A stretch of DNA of 64,000 bases, taken from the NCBI GenBank assembly GCA_038046265.1, contig JBBSWN010000010.1, positions 7,693-71,692 on the forward strand. Reading direction: 5' to 3'. Source of the DNA: Nanobdellota archaeon. GTDB taxonomy: Archaea; Nanobdellota; Nanobdellia; SCGC-AAA011-G17; JACPIM01. This document shows positions 5,089 to 61,749 of this stretch, in pieces. The notes beneath the pieces were generated by a model that saw nothing but the letters and a program-made list of their open reading frames with translations, was not told the DNA's origin and did not search any database. A program made the translations under genes and the position numbers. How positions within the stretch are numbered: position 1 is the stretch's first letter; every line of letters begins with the position of its first letter.

Positions 5089-5958
5089 ATGAATAAAAAA
5101 GGGATGGAAATTACTTTTAATTGGATTTTTGTTATAATTGCTGGGAGTGTTTTATTGATGTTTTTCCTGTTTTTTGCGTGGAAACAGATAGGATTGTTTA
5201 ACAAATTAGGGATTAATGAGGTAGTTTCAAAATTGAACAATGAAATAGATTCTTTTGCTATAGGGGTTTCACTGAACAAGGTTGTTGAACTGCCTAAAGG
5301 TGTTGATATTAGTTTTAAATGCGGGGAGGTTGTTTTTAAAGGGGCAAAAAAAGACACCTTACATTTAATTTATGCTGAAGGGGATTTTAGAGAGAGATTT
5401 AATTTATGGACAAATGCATGGGTATTTCCTTTTAAAGTTGACAATTTATACTATACTACAAATTCTAATGGGAAGATGTTTATTATTGGAAATGAGAATT
5501 TTTTCTTTAATATACCTAATAAATTTCCAAAATCTAATAATTTAAACCAGGAAGTTGGAAAAAACGATGTTATAGTTGATTTTACAAATTCTAATTTACA
5601 AAGAAATTATAGAGAAAATAAGGTATTAGTAATAGACAGCTCAAGAAATATGATAACTTTTTTTCCTGAGAACAAAAAAGAGGAGTTTTATGGGGAGGAA
5701 ATGATTTATGGGGGTATATTTTCTAGTTATACAGAGTATTCCTGCCTAAGGAAAAAGGCTTTAGAAAGACTAAATGTAATTTCCGAGCTATATAAAAAGA
5801 AGGCTGGATTGCTTAAATTAAATTCAAAATGCAACTTTTTGTATAGTGAAATGGAAAAGACATTAGAGCTTTTTAAGAGAGAGCCATTAAAGTTTAAGAA
5901 TGTGTTAATTGAGCAGAATGACAATTTAAAAAGGAGCGGGTGTGCAAGTGTCTTTTAA
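5089..5958 (+). CDS. type IV pilin-like protein (class III signal peptide)
   Basis: MNKKG|MEITFNWIFVIIAGSVLLMFFLFF; a TATA-like tttatattat lies ~25 nt upstream. Confidence 0.45.
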   Translation: MNKKGMEITFNWIFVIIAGSVLLMFFLFFAWKQIGLFNKLGINEVVSKLNNEIDSFAIGVSLNKVVELPKGVDISFKCGEVVFKGAKKDTLHLIYAEGDFRERFNLWTNAWVFPFKVDNLYYTTNSNGKMFIIGNENFFFNIPNKFPKSNNLNQEVGKNDVIVDFTNSNLQRNYRENKVLVIDSSRNMITFFPENKKEEFYGEEMIYGGIFSSYTEYSCLRKKALERLNVISELYKKKAGLLKLNSKCNFLYSEMEKTLELFKREPLKFKNVLIEQNDNLKRSGCASVF

Positions 5959-32962: not shown

Positions 32963-36444
<3,482 letters not shown>

Positions 36445-36445
<1 letters not shown>

Positions 36446-41544: not shown

Positions 41545-42858
41545 TTATTTATCTATTATTTCTGCGTAGCCAATCAATCTCCATCTGTCACCAAATCTTC
41601 TTGATATTGTAACTCTATCTGTTTTTGAGCAACATACAGAGAGTTTTAAGTTAACATGAGCAAGGCCTTTTTTCAAGTCATCTATAATACCAACTGTCAC
41701 ACTAGAATTAATGTTTAACATTAAAGGTTCAAGCTTTCTTAACGGGTCTACGTTTAGTTCTTCTTTTGTTCCAACCACTCTTTTTAACAAGAATGGCTTT
41801 AAAGTGAAGGAATTCCAGACATCTGGAAGCTTTCCTTTTAATCCAAGGACGTTTCCAGACAACTGGTCTGCTTTTACTATTGAAGGATCAAGCATTGTTA
41901 AAATTCCTACTGAACCACCTGGCTTTATTTCCTTTACTTCATCACCACCTGATTTCAAGGAAATTATTTTTGCTGATATTGGTTTATATGTTAATTTGCC
42001 TTCTTTCTCTATTTTTAGGCCTGGCTTTATTTCAATTTCATCATTTAGTTTTAAAATTCCTTTTTTTAAACCGCCGCCAAGAACACCACCTTTCAAGCTT
42101 TCAATTTTGGAGCCTGGCTTATTTATATCAAAGCTTCTTACAATAAACATTAAAGGATTATCTTTTTCATTTCTTACAGGAGTTTTTATTGCTTCTTCTA
42201 TTGCCTGTATTAATGCATCTATGTTTGTGTTGTGCTGGGCTGAAATTGGGATTATTAAAGCTGATTCTGCTATTGTTCCTTTTATGAATTCTTTTATTTG
42301 CTTGTAATTTTCTAGAGCTTCTTCATCACTAACTAAATCTATTTTATTCTGGGCTATTACAATATTTTTTATTCCTGAAATTTCCAGTGCCATTAAATGC
42401 TCTCTTGTCTGGGGTTGAGGGCATTTTTCATTTGCAGCTATCAGTAAAATAGCACCATCCATTATAGCTGCTCCTGAAAGCATTGTTGCCATTAAAGTTT
42501 CATGACCAGGAGCATCAACAAAAGAAACTTTTCTCAAGAATTTAGTTTCTTTTGATTTACAAAAAGGACATACTGGAGAATTTGTATATTTTTTGCATTT
42601 CAAGCACTGATAAAAAGATGCGTCTGCATAACCAATCCTAATTGTAATTCCTTTTTTTAATTCTTCTGAATGGGTGTCTGTCCATTTTCCTGTAAGAGTT
42701 TTAACTAATGTGGTTTTGCCGTTGTCAACTTGACCCACGGTGCCAATATTAACTTCTGGCTGGACAAATTCCTGTTTGTGAACTGATTTTTCTTCTACTT
42801 TAGTTTTCTTTATTTCTATTGTTTTTACTTCTTCTGTTTGTTTCTTAGGTCTGGGCAT
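41545..42858 (-). CDS. eif2g: translation initiation factor aIF-2 gamma subunit
   Basis: GTPase G1 NIGTVGQVDNGKTTL, zinc ribbon CLKCKK...CPFCKS, beta-barrel domains. Confidence 0.8.
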   Translation of the reverse strand: MPRPKKQTEEVKTIEIKKTKVEEKSVHKQEFVQPEVNIGTVGQVDNGKTTLVKTLTGKWTDTHSEELKKGITIRIGYADASFYQCLKCKKYTNSPVCPFCKSKETKFLRKVSFVDAPGHETLMATMLSGAAIMDGAILLIAANEKCPQPQTREHLMALEISGIKNIVIAQNKIDLVSDEEALENYKQIKEFIKGTIAESALIIPISAQHNTNIDALIQAIEEAIKTPVRNEKDNPLMFIVRSFDINKPGSKIESLKGGVLGGGLKKGILKLNDEIEIKPGLKIEKEGKLTYKPISAKIISLKSGGDEVKEIKPGGSVGILTMLDPSIVKADQLSGNVLGLKGKLPDVWNSFTLKPFLLKRVVGTKEELNVDPLRKLEPLMLNINSSVTVGIIDDLKKGLAHVNLKLSVCCSKTDRVTISRRFGDRWRLIGYAEIIDK

Positions 42859-42903
42859 TTTTCAATAGAATTTCAAAATTTTTGGTATTTAATACTTTCT
42901 GAG

Positions 42904-42967
42904 AACCCTTTTAAGAAAAGCGTTCACGGAAAAAGAACCCTTTTAAGAAAAAGCTTCACCAAAAATG
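42904..42967 (+). promoter_or_regulatory. two tandem dispersed-motif copies (AACCCTTTTAAGAAAAGCGTTCACGGAAAAAG / AACCCTTTTAAGAAAAAGCTTCACCAAAAATG)
   Basis: Motif family; lies in the divergent region between aIF2-gamma and the four-gene operon. Confidence 0.4.
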
Positions 42968-43024
42968 AGTTTGATTTTTTTTGAATAATAAGGTTTAAAA
43001 AGAAAGATTTTAAAGAAAATACTC

Positions 43025-43357
43025 ATGTTTTCAGAAGTAAATGTTACAGGAATTCCGGAATATGGTGTTTATGGAGAATATTTTCTTAGAGTAGATAGGA
43101 TTTTAGTCAATCCTGAAAATCCTAAAGATGAAAAATATGTTAGAGATTCTGGATTGAGAGCTATTGATGGACATTTTCGTGCACGTTTAGGCAATATAGA
43201 AGTTGAAACTTTGGAAGGAGTTATTTATTTTCAAACAGGAGATAATTTGGCTGATTTTAAAGGGAAGTTCAAAATTACAAAAAAGAGCAGGAAAAGTGAC
43301 AATTTAGATTTAGCTTTGTGTTGGGAAGGTTGCCATCAAGGAAGTAAAAATGTTTGA
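43025..43357 (+). CDS. hypothetical small protein (operon gene 1 of 4)
   Basis: 110 aa; 8-nt overlap with the next gene. Confidence 0.4.
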   Translation: MFSEVNVTGIPEYGVYGEYFLRVDRILVNPENPKDEKYVRDSGLRAIDGHFRARLGNIEVETLEGVIYFQTGDNLADFKGKFKITKKSRKSDNLDLALCWEGCHQGSKNV

Positions 43358-43655
43358 GACTCAGGAAAATTTATTGAAAGGAATAAAAGTGGAGGAAAGA
43401 AGGGAAAAAGCAGATATGCTAGAGGGTAAAGTAGATATTCCCTTTAATGGAAATCCTAAGACTGTTGTGGATTTAGTTGAATTAAAATTAAGGGAAAAAC
43501 ATAAAGATGGAGTTTTAGGGTATGAAGTTTTTGGTTTAAGAGCTAATTCTGATAATGGTGAAAGAAGAGTGACTTTTACTTACAGGTTATTTTTAAGAGA
43601 GAGTGATTCTTGTTATGTTGAAATTGATGGAGAGAAAATTTTAATTGATATTTAA
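43350..43655 (+). CDS. hypothetical small protein (operon gene 2 of 4)
   Basis: 101 aa; 11-nt overlap with the next gene. Confidence 0.4.
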   Translation: MFETQENLLKGIKVEERREKADMLEGKVDIPFNGNPKTVVDLVELKLREKHKDGVLGYEVFGLRANSDNGERRVTFTYRLFLRESDSCYVEIDGEKILIDI

Positions 43656-44028
43656 AATGGCTTTAGGAAAAAATAAATTGGAAGAGTTAGCAAGAGAAGG
43701 GAATATTGTTAATGTGAGACTTAGCTTAGCTAATGTTGGAATATTTTCTTTTGAACTTCCTAGGAGAGAAGAAAGAGAGAATTTTACACTAGGACAGCTG
43801 AAAGAACACAGAACAGGAGCCAAGGCTTTTAAGGAAATAGAAAAAGCTGCTGAAGCATTTCTTAAGAAAGAATATAATGGAAGGTATGTTGAGTTAAAAG
43901 CTGATTTAGGTCAAGCTGTTATATTAGAAGATTCTGGCAATGATGACAGATCTGAACTTTATGATGTTGTTTGTTCATACAAAGTTGTTTTGAAACCTAA
44001 AAAACAAGAAGTTGGATTTGGAGATTAA
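43645..44028 (+). CDS. hypothetical small protein (operon gene 3 of 4)
   Basis: 127 aa; 2-nt gap to the next gene. Confidence 0.4.
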   Translation: MIFKMALGKNKLEELAREGNIVNVRLSLANVGIFSFELPRREERENFTLGQLKEHRTGAKAFKEIEKAAEAFLKKEYNGRYVELKADLGQAVILEDSGNDDRSELYDVVCSYKVVLKPKKQEVGFGD

Positions 44029-44030
44029 AT

Positions 44031-44348
44031 ATGAAAGGAAAGTTTTCAGCAGGAGAAGTTTTTATTGACAGAATTAAAGTTGAAACAGTTGAAAGAATAG
44101 AGTACAGGGCCAGACTAGCAAGAGTTAGGCTTTCAGAAGGACTTCCAAGAAGCGGAGAAGATTTTTTACAGCTACAGAGGCATTTGAGACTAAAATTGGA
44201 TGAACAAGTGATGAGAGAATATAAAGAGAGAGTGATTTCTGTTGACCCTCCTTTAGGAATAATTCTTAGCTGCAAAGAAAATGAATTACATAAAGGAGAG
44301 TATGATATAAGCGCGACTTATTTTGTTTCTGTTGAAAAGAAGAAATAA
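44031..44348 (+). CDS. hypothetical small protein (operon gene 4 of 4)
   Basis: 105 aa, Arg-rich. Confidence 0.4.
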   Translation: MKGKFSAGEVFIDRIKVETVERIEYRARLARVRLSEGLPRSGEDFLQLQRHLRLKLDEQVMREYKERVISVDPPLGIILSCKENELHKGEYDISATYFVSVEKKK

Positions 44349-44352
44349 CTTT

Positions 44353-45000
44353 TTAGAAACCGTATTTTCCTTTTAAAGGAACAAAAACAAACTGCCCCAA
44401 GTTTTCTTTTTTAATTTCGTTTTTTAATTTCGTTATTTTTATCATACTTTGTTCATACAAGCTTCCAATTGGAGCAATCAAGATGCCGTTGTTTTTTAAC
44501 TGCTTAATTAGATCATAGGGAATTTTAGAGCAGGCTGCTGTCACTATGATTTTGTTATAAGGACTTTCTTTTTTGTAACCTTTGTTGCCGTCTGCTATAA
44601 TTATTTTTACGTTTTTAATTTCTGCTTTTTTTAAATTTGATTTTGCAAATTTTGCTAGTTCTTTGTCAAATTCTACTGAGAAGACTTTTGTTTTTGTTAT
44701 ATTTTGGATTAGGGCTGAGTTCCATCCTGAACCAGAGCCTATTTCAAGGACTTTATCTTTTTCTTTTAAGTTTAAGTTTTGGAGCATAAAAGCAACTGTG
44801 TATGGCTGAGATATGGATTGGGAGAGAATTGGGAGGGCCTGGTCTTCATAAGCTAGATTTTTTAGTTCTTCTGGGACAAAAAGATGCCTAGGTATGTTCT
44901 TTATAGCTTCCAGCACTTTTTTATCTGTAATTCCTTTGATTTCAAGGTCTTCAAGCATATGAATTAAAGTCATTTTTATAACTACTAAAGATAATAACAC
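44353..45000 (-). CDS. pcm: protein-L-isoaspartate O-methyltransferase
   Basis: SQPYTVAFMLQ ... VLEIGSGSGWNSAL SAM-binding motif. Confidence 0.7.
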   Translation of the reverse strand: MLLSLVVIKMTLIHMLEDLEIKGITDKKVLEAIKNIPRHLFVPEELKNLAYEDQALPILSQSISQPYTVAFMLQNLNLKEKDKVLEIGSGSGWNSALIQNITKTKVFSVEFDKELAKFAKSNLKKAEIKNVKIIIADGNKGYKKESPYNKIIVTAACSKIPYDLIKQLKNNGILIAPIGSLYEQSMIKITKLKNEIKKENLGQFVFVPLKGKYGF

Positions 45001-47294: not shown

Positions 47295-47678
47295 ATGCCA
47301 CCAGCAGCAGGACCAACTCCTGCAGAACAAAGAATAAATTTAGGCCGATTATTGAAGAAAATAGAGAAATCTAAACAATTTGTAGACTTTTCTTCAAGAA
47401 TTGAAGAGGCAGTTACTGAAAATGTACTAACTCCTGGACAAGCAGATGCTTTTAGAGATTTGTTATCTGAAGCTTATGGCCAAAGTTCTTTTGAAGATCA
47501 AGCAGAACTTTTGGGTAGGTTAGGTAATGGTATTAAGACAGAGATTTGTTATGAACTTTCTAGGAGAGGAAAGTTAGTAACTATTGATCCAGCAGATTTA
47601 GATGCTGTAGCAGTCAGAAGAGATACTTATGTCTCTGCAGGCAGAAAGTGGTACAGCAAGAACAAAGAAAGTCTTTAG
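47295..47678 (+). CDS. hypothetical protein, GC-richer codon usage
   Basis: 127 aa; TATA and SD upstream; composition unlike the flanks. Confidence 0.4.
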   Translation: MPPAAGPTPAEQRINLGRLLKKIEKSKQFVDFSSRIEEAVTENVLTPGQADAFRDLLSEAYGQSSFEDQAELLGRLGNGIKTEICYELSRRGKLVTIDPADLDAVAVRRDTYVSAGRKWYSKNKESL

Positions 47679-47709
47679 ATTTTTCTTTCTTATTTTTTAT
47701 TTTTTTAAA

Positions 47710-48054
47710 ATGAGCCTAGTTAGTTTAGCAACATCTGGGACAGGAGATCCTGAGGTGGACAGAGCTATTTCTTTATGGAGAAAAGTGAAAGAAGACCATA
47801 AAAATTTAGCTGATATTGATGCACCAAATATTTTGACACAAGGCAGGAGAGATGATTATTTAGCGAGATTCATGAGTGCACAAGCAGTAGGCGAGGAAGT
47901 TAGGAGATGCCAGGAAATTCTGAGTGTATATGATGAATTGGAAAATGAATTTGCAGGTTATATAGCAGATAGAGTTGCTAGATCTATAAAGAATTTAAGA
48001 AGAAAAACTTATGTTGAGATTGGAAAAGTCTTATTAAAAGAAAAGGGAGTTTAG
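47710..48054 (+). CDS. hypothetical protein, GC-richer (start moved to the ATG at 47710)
   Basis: The listed 47629 start would translate an oligo-T tract; the internal ATG follows the T-rich spacer. Confidence 0.4.
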   Translation: MSLVSLATSGTGDPEVDRAISLWRKVKEDHKNLADIDAPNILTQGRRDDYLARFMSAQAVGEEVRRCQEILSVYDELENEFAGYIADRVARSIKNLRRKTYVEIGKVLLKEKGV

Positions 48055-50755: not shown

Positions 50756-51241
50756 TTAATGCTCGTGCTTCTCCTGCTTTTTTTTCATATATAGTTCTGT
50801 TGTCTTTTTAATGCTTTCTTCTGTAGAGCCTGGTGTAAATTGGGGTGTATTTGTTGGGGTGGTGCTCTGGAGCTCTATTTTTAATTCTTCTTTATGCTCT
50901 GCATATGTTGTGTAAGTCTGGTATTCTTTGCCATGATGCTCTTCTAATTTAATGCCGTATAATTTTCCTATTTTTACCTTTTCCTTTTTTTCTTCTTCTA
51001 AATTTTCTGCTTCTTTTTTTACTAGAGTGTCAAGTTCTTTAGGTTCTTCTGTTTTTTTTGGCTCTTTTTTCGAGGATTCAAGATGTTCCTGCTCCAGCTC
51101 TGCTTTTTCTATCTGCTCTGTAATTATTCTTAAAAATTTCTTGTTTTTATTTTCCAGAAGGAGCTTTCTTAATTCTTTTTCCCTCTGCAAAGGATGCAAT
51201 TGTTCTATTCTCTTTATAGAGGGCTTTTTAGGTTTAGGCAT
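50756..51241 (-). CDS. hypothetical Lys/Glu-rich protein
   Basis: 161 aa, low complexity. Confidence 0.3.
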   Translation of the reverse strand: MPKPKKPSIKRIEQLHPLQREKELRKLLLENKNKKFLRIITEQIEKAELEQEHLESSKKEPKKTEEPKELDTLVKKEAENLEEEKKEKVKIGKLYGIKLEEHHGKEYQTYTTYAEHKEELKIELQSTTPTNTPQFTPGSTEESIKKTTELYMKKKQEKHEH

Positions 51242-51285
51242 AAATAAGGCATAGCTTTAGAATATATAAACTCTTTTGGAATAGT

Positions 51286-51633
51286 TTACACTAAATTTAC
51301 AAATTCTTTCTTTATTTCTTCAAAAGTTACTGTGTTTATTTTTCCTATACTTTTTCTAACGATGCTTTTGTCCAAAGTAAAAAGTTTGTCCACTTTTACC
51401 CTGCTTGTAACCGGAATCTGGCCTTTTGATAGATTTTTGTTTTCTAATATAACTGAGTTTTCTGAATCTTTTAAGTTTGAGGTAATCCCACAAGTTATTA
51501 TATCTTCTGTCCGGCTATTATATTCCTTTTTAGATAAGACGACAACTGGTCTTTGTTTTATAGAGCTTAAATCGGAAAATGGAAAAGGAACTATTAATAT
51601 TTCCCCCCGTTCATATATTGTTCCAAATGTCAT
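51286..51633 (-). CDS. mazF: MazF/PemK-family toxin
   Basis: RGEILIVPFPFSD....KQRPVVVLS....CGITSN pattern. Confidence 0.65.
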   Translation of the reverse strand: MTFGTIYERGEILIVPFPFSDLSSIKQRPVVVLSKKEYNSRTEDIITCGITSNLKDSENSVILENKNLSKGQIPVTSRVKVDKLFTLDKSIVRKSIGKINTVTFEEIKKEFVNLV

Positions 51634-51844
51634 CTTCTTTGTTGCTCCATAATTTTTCAGCTACTTTTTCAGAATGCTTTAATAAATCCCTAAAATCAGA
51701 TTCCTTAACTTTTTCCAATAAAATTACTCTTCCTTTTTTTATTAAAACTAGTTCATCTCCCTTTTTTATGCCTGCTGACTCCCGAAAACTAACAGGCAAG
51801 GAGATTTGTCCTTTATCTGAAACTTTTACTATTTTTGTTTCCAT
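51611..51844 (-). CDS. mazE: MazE/AbrB-type antitoxin
   Basis: KVSDKGQISLPVSFRESAGIKKGDEL swapped hairpin; overlaps the toxin gene by 23 nt. Confidence 0.6.
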   Translation of the reverse strand: METKIVKVSDKGQISLPVSFRESAGIKKGDELVLIKKGRVILLEKVKESDFRDLLKHSEKVAEKLWSNKEDDIWNNI

Positions 51845-51889
51845 AAGTATGTAAGAATTTCCTTACTTATATATTTTTTGATTATATAA

Positions 51890-53485
51890 TTATAATGGTG
51901 TAATATATCCGTGGGATTTTTTGTAAACATCATACAAGATCCAGGCCATGCTTCCAGCTTCTGACTTCGCCTTGTCTTTTTCAGATTCTTCTTCTGCTTT
52001 TTTTAACGGGAGCTTGTCTTTCTTTTTTTCAGATTTAATGTTCAGAATTTCTTTAAAACCATCAAAAATAGACTTAAATGGATCTAGGAAACCTTCCTGC
52101 GGTTTTTGCTCTTTTATATGGAGAATTGCTCCATCTACTGTGCCTGCTTTTTTTAATGCTTCAACTGCTTTTTCTTTTTTTACACCTGTTTTTTCCATGA
52201 CCTCAATTACCTCTTCTTTTAGAACAGGGATGTTTTTTTCATTTGACTCATTCAGGTATTTTGTGATTTCATCTTTCATTGACATTAAAGATGACTCCAA
52301 GGAAGTCATTATTGCAATGTCATCTTCTTCTATTTTCTTTTTATAATCTTCAATCTGCTGCATTGTTGAAACATAGCCCTTGACATAAATTTCTGTTCTT
52401 CCTAGATGGACAGCTCCTCTTTGATATTCTTTCTGGTAAGCCATTTCAGGAAGAGCAATAAATTTTATTCTAATGTGTATGCAAGGGAAGTATTTTTTGA
52501 ATTCTCTTTCAATCTCAAATCCATTTGGGGTAGTTTCTGTGTAATTTTTTCTTATTCCTAATAATTCAACTTCAATTTTATTTGTTTCAAAAGTACTCAA
52601 CAAATGAGGGTCTTCAGTTTCACGGGACATTTCCAACTGCTTAATGTTTCTTAAGTAAGGCTTGACCCAGCTAATGTACATTCTTATTGTGTTAAAATGC
52701 TGCCTTAAATAAGCCAAGACAAAATTTCTTCTGTCTGCAATTTCTTTTTCTGTTTTTTCCTTCCAGTCAATAAACTGGTATAATTTCCTTGCCAATACTT
52801 CACGGACTTTTACATTAATCCCATCTTTACTTAAACCAGTAACTAAAAGGTCAACATCTTTTACATCTTTTGGGTGAATTCTGTAAAACAAGTCTGGAAG
52901 AATTACAAAACCAACTTGAGATGCAAGGCCTGTAACTGAGCCGGGATTTTTTGCCCCTCCTTCAACTAAGTCAACCCAAACTGATTTTAGAGCTACACTT
53001 GCTGAATGACTTTTATCATTATAGCCTTTATAATAAGCAAGCCTTTCATCAAGAATTCTTAATTCCCTGATTATTTGGAACATGTCTTTTGTCATTTTTC
53101 CAACTGTTGCAAGGTATGTAGATACTTTTTCCTGCTGGATTGCTTTTCTTTGCTCTATTGAACCCCACATGCTTGATGCTTCGCCTGCTGCAAACATGTC
53201 TTTTAATTTTAAAACCTGGCCTGTTTTTCCTGACAACTTCAAGCCAAAGTCTTCTTTTGTTTCCATAAACCTAAGAATCCAGTAATAATTAGCTTCAACA
53301 CCGCCTTTTAATTCATCAATAATTAGCCTGCAGCCTTCTTTTGGGCAGTATTTTGGCTTTACTTCATCACCTAACTTAACTTCTTTTTTTTCCTCTTCTG
53401 GCTTTTTAGCACCAAATAAACCTTCTAGAAGTTTTTCCCTGAATGAAGAATGTTCTTCTTTTTTTTCCTCTACTTCCTGAACCAT
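51890..53485 (-). CDS. hypothetical 531-aa protein with a UBA-like segment
   Basis: VMEKTGVKKEKAVEALKKAGTVDGAILHIK resembles the NAC-alpha UBA tail; no other motif recognised. Confidence 0.35.
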   Translation of the reverse strand: MVQEVEEKKEEHSSFREKLLEGLFGAKKPEEEKKEVKLGDEVKPKYCPKEGCRLIIDELKGGVEANYYWILRFMETKEDFGLKLSGKTGQVLKLKDMFAAGEASSMWGSIEQRKAIQQEKVSTYLATVGKMTKDMFQIIRELRILDERLAYYKGYNDKSHSASVALKSVWVDLVEGGAKNPGSVTGLASQVGFVILPDLFYRIHPKDVKDVDLLVTGLSKDGINVKVREVLARKLYQFIDWKEKTEKEIADRRNFVLAYLRQHFNTIRMYISWVKPYLRNIKQLEMSRETEDPHLLSTFETNKIEVELLGIRKNYTETTPNGFEIEREFKKYFPCIHIRIKFIALPEMAYQKEYQRGAVHLGRTEIYVKGYVSTMQQIEDYKKKIEEDDIAIMTSLESSLMSMKDEITKYLNESNEKNIPVLKEEVIEVMEKTGVKKEKAVEALKKAGTVDGAILHIKEQKPQEGFLDPFKSIFDGFKEILNIKSEKKKDKLPLKKAEEESEKDKAKSEAGSMAWILYDVYKKSHGYITPL

Positions 53486-61434: not shown

Positions 61435-61734
61435 TTAACCAAAGAGCGCACCGAGGCCCGCTGCTGCGGCTTCTTCAGCTTTCTTTTCTTCTTCAGCTGA
61501 TTTCTTTTCGTCTTTCTTTGTTTCTGCTTTTGCTTCTGTTACTGGAGCTGCGACTGGCATTGCTGCCTGCTTTACAACCTCGTCAATATTAACTCCGTCA
61601 AGAGCTGCCAACAAGGCCTTAGCTTTCATTTCATCTGAATGACCGCCGGCAGATTCAATTACTTTTTTTACTCTGTCAGCTGTCAATTCTGCTCCTAGTT
61701 TGTGGATCAGCAAAGCTGAATATACATATTCCAT
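61435..61734 (-). CDS. rpl12: ribosomal stalk protein P1 (L12e)
   Basis: MEYVYSALLIHKLGAE...; acidic Ala/Glu-rich hinge; C-terminal GLGALFG. Confidence 0.8.
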   Translation of the reverse strand: MEYVYSALLIHKLGAELTADRVKKVIESAGGHSDEMKAKALLAALDGVNIDEVVKQAAMPVAAPVTEAKAETKKDEKKSAEEEKKAEEAAAAGLGALFG

Positions 61735-61749
61735 ATATTTTTCCTCCTA

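Follow-up and report, generated by a model that had tools for sequence, protein, structure and literature searches.

Organization of the gene cluster

Four successive small genes lie on the + strand of the window (the whole 64,000-nt stretch of DNA analyzed), as an earlier note on this sequence had claimed. We refer to them as gene A (43025-43357, 110 aa), gene B (43350-43655, 101 aa), gene C (43657-44028, 123 aa, starting at the ATG at 43657), and gene D (44031-44348, 105 aa), the last being the best-conserved member. The aIF2-gamma gene (41545-42858, − strand) is their divergent neighbor, an orientation that was also borne out, and a PCMT methyltransferase gene (44353-45000, − strand) is their convergent neighbor. 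The same four genes were called by independent gene callers in six assemblies. Contigs identical to the window came from 0.1-µm filtered Hainich groundwater metagenomes, and the genomes closest to it are Woesearchaeota MAGs.

The start of B overlaps the stop of A within ATGTTTGA, giving the 8-nt overlap previously described, and the 2-nt gap between C and D was likewise found. The proposed 11-nt overlap between B and C was not: it needs a TTG start at 43645, whereas orthologue alignments and gene callers back the ATG at 43657, which leaves a 1-nt gap after the B stop codon and makes C 123 aa long instead of 127 aa. The ATGTTTGA overlap before B is kept in two related loci, L091 and L093, in which the gene preceding B encodes another C-terminal end. 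Since start and stop codons overlap or abut along the cluster, it is likely that all four products are synthesized jointly from a single mRNA. The suggestion that the cluster is GC-richer than its flanks had to be dropped, its GC content being 32.6%, compared with 33.4% for aIF2-gamma, 31.6% for PCMT, and 31.35% for the window.

Upstream of A we found a putative archaeal BRE/TATA element, AAGGTTTAAAAAG (42990-43002, + strand), recognized by the archaeal promoter consensus and by its conservation in relatives: the TTTAAAAAG element is kept in L011, L091, and L093 at a comparable spacing to the first ATG. We regard it as the putative cluster promoter. Its TATA portion ends 23 nt ahead of the start codon of A, a distance that points to a leaderless or near-leaderless mRNA.

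The divergent intergenic region also contains a 32-nt tandem direct repeat, with two copies that are 84% identical (42902-42965, + strand). It is an insertion in the divergent spacer specific to this genome and was not found in the orthologous intergenic regions of L011, L091, and L093. The earlier note had described it as a double copy of a dispersed motif; the two copies are there, and the dispersal barely is. The window holds at most one further good copy, and six matches to the motif at ≤3 mismatches were counted against 1.96 expected, a number reached in 2 of 100 shuffles. Weak copies of GAACCCTTTTAAGAAAA (1-3 mismatches) were noticed on the + strand at 5958, 16469, 20203, and 62819, in each case apparently close to a gene boundary. 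Their number is only marginally above chance, and they may simply be BRE/TATA-like promoter sequence.

The D stop codon is directly followed by a run of five T (44350-44354, + strand), a plausible archaeal oligo-T terminator that shares bases with the stop codon of PCMT, the convergent gene. A scan of the region for bacterial-type terminators found none, and an Rfam scan of the same region gave no match.

The four genes are under purifying selection and match no described family

By BLASTP, A-D are 46-63% identical to their orthologues in L011, D sharing 63% with D11 in the local alignment. The dN/dS values against L011 were 0.34 for A, 0.44 for B, 0.41 for C, and 0.20 for D, with dS near saturation, and those of the flanking genes were 0.057 for aIF2-gamma and 0.077 for PCMT, so that the cluster evolves at 3-8 times the ratio of its neighbors. 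The existence of orthologues together with dN/dS values of 0.20-0.44 indicates that A-D truly encode proteins and are under purifying, though clearly relaxed, selection.

The four proteins had been described as belonging to no recognizable family, which agrees with what we found: A-D gave no match in Pfam, NCBIfam, PHROGs (best E-value 0.083), PADLOC, or the PDB sequences, in Pfam and PADLOC even at E up to 10. A Pfam search with 12 superfamily members at E up to 5 gave no hit either, and a word-index protein search with C recovered C itself and nothing else. No relatives of the cluster proteins were obtained by pattern scans of JGI metagenomes (with the D and the B alignments) or of IMG/VR, and tblastn against phage genomes gave no match. 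Foldseek against BFVD gave no meaningful match, with a best E-value of 8.8e-3 and a TM of 0.31. The GRAVY value is about −0.5 for all four proteins, and neither signal peptides nor hydrophobic segments are evident in their sequences.

Relatives are few and share one locus

In an aIF2-gamma-anchored scan of GTDB species representatives, the cluster turned up in the nearest genomes and in no others. Searching 5.8 billion proteins with a B profile returned only a handful of relatives, and an exhaustive HMMER search of 1.84 billion representatives returned 11 hits, seven of them credible. The four others are repeat proteins that we treated as spurious: P0023 and P0024, eukaryote-like tandem-repeat proteins, match only a short 'G-x-K-V-E' stretch, P0027 matches a different stretch, and P0026 was set aside with them. 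The B orthologues P0002, P0003, and P0005 are 45-48% identical to B, and orthologues of C occur in L011, L093, L095, and L096.

The cluster occupies the same aIF2-gamma/PCMT locus in about eight other Woesearchaeota contigs. Relatives sit between these two genes wherever the flanking sequence suffices; the two short contigs with P0020 and P0022, which do not include both flanks, are consistent with this locus. The aIF2-gamma proteins of cluster-bearing genomes are 74-90% identical to that of the window (89% in L011), and the cluster is absent from Woesearchaeota whose aIF2-gamma is ≤67% identical. The whole region from gyrB to PPDK is collinear among the relatives.

Some assemblies called for caution. 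L012 (RIFCSPHIGHO2_02_FULL_29_19), with an aIF2-gamma 88% identical to that of the window, was considered as a close relative free of the cluster and set aside as uninformative, because its contig ends 564 nt upstream, the upstream sequence is unrelated, and aIF2-gamma is damaged. In L012 1-720, about 45 codons are missing close to the 5' end of aIF2-gamma, which is not in frame, and the 480 nt preceding it resemble none of the other loci, probably through an error in scaffolding or assembly. In L091/L092, the orthologue of C (L091 8323-8690, + strand) has a frameshift near its 3' end, with the C-terminal part in another frame, which reflects either pseudogenization or faulty assembly. The NCBI assembly concerned, GCA_964457785.1, has the whole locus in two divergent copies, one on contig 2 and the other on contig 17, which points to a bin of mixed strains.

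The cluster is built from paralogous modules with shuffled tails

B, C, D, and an additional module of the relatives, X, were shown by sequence comparison to form one paralogous superfamily derived from one domain of about 70-100 aa. C and D are similar in pairwise comparison (E 1.5e-4), and the D-like protein of L093 (C93) bridges B (6e-6) and D (1e-8). With hhalign of the enlarged families, X and B matched at 81% probability, B and D at 79%, and C and D at 90% (E 1.8e-6). Invariant residues of the joint superfamily alignment include a Pro that follows the first strand and a Tyr within the last one. A, though conserved, had no sequence link to the other families in hhalign; from its pattern of hydrophobic and charged segments, we infer that it may share their topology.

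The genes further consist of a core and, except for D, a short C-terminal tail. Gene B is a B-family beta-alpha-beta-beta core with tail 2 (YVEIDGEKILIDI; consensus [VI]E[IL]DG..[IL].[IV][DE]I), and gene C is a C-family core with the conserved tail 3, ...F[GA]D (here VGFGD; consensus F-[GA]-D), all C orthologues ending in a charged linker followed by this motif. Gene A is an A-family core (residues 1 to about 92, of which residues 1-91 are 49% identical to A11 of L011) with the tail 1 motif CWEGCHQGSKNV (consensus C-x-E-G-C). We also considered the tail as a CxxxCH haem-c site and rejected this, because the His is replaced by T in L011 and by Q in L096 and the proteins seem to be cytoplasmic.

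Tail 1 is found in relatives at the end of module X or B, and tails 1-3 as a whole ride different cores in different genomes. The window has A with tail 1, B with tail 2, C with tail 3, and D. L011 and L091 have A, X with tail 1, B with tail 2, C with tail 3, and D; L093 has X, B with tail 1, a D-like gene with tail 2, and C with tail 3, so that C and D are swapped in order; L095 has A, C with tail 3, and an X-B fusion with tail 1; L096 has a C-like gene with tail 3, an X-B fusion with tail 1, and D; L097 has an A-like gene, an X-B fusion, and a D-like gene; and L013 has a single B-like gene (S13). A cluster may thus hold one, three, four, or five genes, depending on the genome. X and B make up one protein of 175-194 aa in P0020, P0021, P0022, and P0025, which are the more distant relatives. 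Conservation of gene order in other genomes, which the earlier note had set as a test, was seen in the nearest relatives; beyond them, both order and number vary.

Module X is present in the closest relatives and missing from the window, which lacks about 270 nt of the X core compared with L011 and L091. The window's gene A consists of the A core and the last ~18 residues of X, and its C-terminal end matches the end of X11 at the DNA level (TGTTGGGAAGGTTGCCA and TGTTGGGAAGGCTGCAC). The deletion of X in the window accordingly accounts for the fusion of the A core to the X tail.

Predicted fold and comparison with known systems

We modeled B with AF2 from a four-sequence alignment and D from a 12-sequence superfamily alignment, two alignments that differ but overlap, the four B sequences being in both. 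The B model was weak (pLDDT 58.5), with a strand at 23-31, a helix at 36-51, and strands at 55-68 and 71-82. The D model (pLDDT 81.6, pTM 0.65) has a disordered N-terminus of about 20 residues before a beta-alpha-beta-beta core, with a strand at 20-33, a helix at 42-67, and strands at 68-72, 79-83, and 90-102.

Foldseek against the PDB gave nothing at E ≤ 1e-3 for either model. The top of the list for D consisted almost entirely of dodecins, the best being 3onr (E 0.02, TM 0.77 by target and 0.51 by query length), after which the Thermus thermophilus and Halobacterium salinarum dodecins ranked; dodecins were also among the best PDB matches of the B model. From these models, the superfamily domain is predicted to have a beta-alpha-beta-beta core of the dodecin/SHS2 type. 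As this is a simple topology, the likeness to dodecin could arise by convergence. Weak structure hits to eS24, Rpb7, lambda gpU, and TON_0450, none of them significant, were not adopted.

Dodecins are proteins of about 8 kDa with a beta-alpha-beta-beta fold in which the sheet partly enwraps the helix; they form homo-dodecamers of 23 symmetry, with flavin dimers stacked between symmetry-related Trp residues, and are already in use as scaffolds (PMC7414021). The family (PF07311) includes the proteins of H. salinarum (2cc6/1mog), T. thermophilus (TTHA1431), and Mycobacterium tuberculosis (Rv1498A, and the 'calcium dodecin' Rv0379, 3onr). Like dodecins, the cluster proteins are small and soluble, with a three-stranded antiparallel sheet predicted to wrap one helix, and the TM of the D model against dodecin chains, normalized to the dodecin, was 0.53-0.77. 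Unlike dodecins, they begin with a disordered stretch of about 20 residues, their helix is longer and their second strand broken, each family has C-terminal tails of its own, and at 100-125 aa and 12-14 kDa, they are 50-80% longer than a dodecin (~68 aa, ~8 kDa). A dodecin is one gene for a homo-dodecamer, whereas the cluster comprises three to five different paralogues per operon or X-B tandem fusions. The flavin-stacking Trp has no counterpart in B, C, or D, none of which contains Trp; A has one Trp, within its tail motif. Comparison of the superfamily alignment with H. salinarum dodecin by hhalign gave a probability of 0.1%, and a profile search of the PDB sequences recovered no dodecin. 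Given the lack of profile similarity, the absence of Trp from B, C, and D, and the greater length, we speak of a dodecin-like fold and not of a dodecin. Sensitive searches, proposed earlier as a way of overturning the novelty of the cluster, assigned its proteins to no well-known family by sequence, and the likeness to dodecin is at the level of the fold.

The beta-alpha-beta-beta arrangement is also common to SHS2 domains such as the N-terminal domain of Rpb7 (RpoE) and to eS24, which were recurrent weak Foldseek hits of both models (E-values 0.04-0.3, with large RMSDs), a likeness of simple topology only. For the Rpb7/RpoE N-terminal domain, the match was not significant (E 0.06-0.22; 8hyj_G, 3h0g_G, and 9ja1_G), and unlike Rpb7, the cluster proteins have neither an S1 domain nor sequence similarity to it. 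YbjQ/DUF74 proteins (3qkb, 'dodecin subunit-like' fold) are oligomer-forming beta-alpha-beta-beta proteins of small size, with a function that is unknown or lies in metal binding; Foldseek matched 3qkb at an E of 0.12 with a TM of only 0.34-0.37, and there was no Pfam hit.

A probable set of co-translated dodecin-like paralogues

We consider the cluster to represent a family, so far undescribed and confined to a narrow clade of Woesearchaeota, that probably has a dodecin-like fold and has expanded by tandem duplication at one locus. The best explanation of its role, to which we give about an even chance, is a lineage-specific, co-translated set of small soluble paralogues of dodecin-like fold that probably assemble together as a binding or scaffold particle. 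The single promoter-like element 23 nt upstream of A would drive the whole cluster, and the paralogues would associate into a soluble hetero-oligomer. The X-B fusion in relatives, by Rosetta-stone logic, suggests that at least some members physically act together. The short C-terminal tails 1 (CxEGC), 2 (vEIDGxxilIdI), and 3 (F-G/A-D) may serve as detachable connector or docking peptides. By analogy with other dodecin-fold oligomers, the assembly would most likely be a small binding or scaffold particle; we favor this over an enzyme because no catalytic motif is conserved in the cluster proteins.

The earlier note had seen in the four genes a compact, apparently co-transcribed, and translationally coupled unit outside described families. 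Our analysis supports this, and the unit recurs at the same locus elsewhere. The accompanying idea of four different subunits in a fixed stoichiometric machine did not hold up, since one small domain underlies B, C, and D, which are paralogues, and the variation in gene number and order, together with the loss of X in the window, speaks against a fixed, obligate four-subunit complex.

The same variability favors the main alternative, which we rate as less probable and yet a serious contender: a tandem array of independent paralogues, each forming its own homo-oligomer with diversified specificity, so that co-transcription would be a relic of duplication. Copy number ranges from one (S13 alone, in L013) to five (L011 and L091), gene order is loose, as the C/D swap in L093 illustrates, X is dispensable in the window, and known dodecins are homo-dodecamers (PMC7414021). 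However, X and B are fused in four relatives, which indicates that two or more of the modules function next to each other, the tight start/stop coupling is conserved, and the members are old, each kept as a distinct orthologous group.

It is unlikely that the cluster is a fast-evolving conflict cassette (defense, anti-defense, toxin-immunity, or symbiont-host) whose swappable C-terminal tips result from an arms race. Such a role would fit the elevated dN/dS, 3-8 times that of the neighbors, the reshuffling of gene content and tails among close relatives, the very narrow phyletic range (seven credible hits of 11 in 1.84 billion representatives), and the toxin-antitoxin genes in the wider neighborhood. 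Yet the dN/dS values are well below 1, and the locus keeps a stable synteny, flanked by housekeeping genes; in most loci, neither an integrase nor a mobility gene adjoins the cluster. Neither PADLOC nor PHROGs gave a match, relatives were absent from IMG/VR and the phage genomes searched, and the proteins, with a GRAVY of about −0.5, have no evident signal peptides or hydrophobic segments.

Ribosomal stalk tails bind translational GTPases, and the proteins could in principle be translation accessory factors, the stalk-like ...VGFGD end of C docking onto a translational GTPase such as the adjacent aIF2-gamma. The cluster is divergently paired with aIF2-gamma in the cluster-bearing genomes where the flanks suffice, the linker and F-[GA]-D ending is common to all C orthologues, and the window's stalk protein P1 ends in GLGALFG. 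We judge this role very improbable, however: the likeness to the archaeal stalk tail, GLxxLFG after an acidic/Ala-rich linker, spans 3-5 residues and the motif differs from the organism's own stalk tail, the adjacency to aIF2-gamma is explained by the general collinearity of the gyrB to PPDK region, and the eS24 and Rpb7 Foldseek hits are weak and not significant.

That the ORFs are spurious, long chance ORFs (several on opposite strands here) being common in an AT-rich genome, or that they are split pieces of a well-known enzyme, can practically be dismissed, in view of orthologues with dN/dS <0.45, reading frames kept in at least six independent assemblies, a confident AF2 model of D, and HMMER searches of Pfam, NCBIfam, and the PDB that matched nothing known.

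To return to the co-assembling paralogues that we prefer, a bolder version can be formulated, which we regard as speculative and doubtful: in an ultra-small symbiotic archaeon, the cluster might specify a heteromeric relative of the dodecin cage, the first to be known from nature. Its diverged, co-translated paralogues, some fused in tandem, would be locked together by their exchangeable tails, a Cys-x3-Cys tail could serve as a metal clasp between subunits, and the role of the particle would be to buffer a cofactor or metal obtained by scavenging, or else to dock on the translation apparatus.

DPANN archaea have many orphan genes, few of which are structurally or evolutionarily annotated. Here, four 'hypothetical proteins' become one defined family with a probable fold, an aIF2-gamma/PCMT address, and a history of tandem duplication, X-B fission or fusion, and tail shuffling. 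Should the members co-assemble, the result would be a dodecin-type particle that is heteromeric by nature, of interest to the engineering of protein assemblies and scaffolds, and possibly a sign that ultra-small archaea have adapted in cofactor handling or in a translation-linked function. Otherwise, the cluster would be an ordinary lineage-specific expansion of paralogues.

Other features of the window and related loci

A P1-like stalk ORF of 103 aa (61435-61746, − strand) ends in ...EEKKAEEAAAAGLGALFG (GLGALFG). Just after the PPDK-like gene lie two overlapping small ORFs (47295-47678 and 47629-48054, + strand; 127 and 141 aa) without Pfam domains, which were not hit by the A, X, B, C, or D profiles; similar-sized gene pairs are also present at this position in L091, L093, and L095. 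About 7 kb downstream of the cluster, we found a MazE/PemK (MazF-like) toxin-antitoxin pair (~51240-51890, − strand; L001 17256-17814), and L093 carries PIN/MazE and AbiEii genes upstream of aIF2-gamma. GyrB (32969-36445, + strand) is 1158 aa long in the window, where Pfam hits mark an intein with a LAGLIDADG homing-endonuclease domain; in L097, GyrB is 638 aa long and the intein hits are absent.
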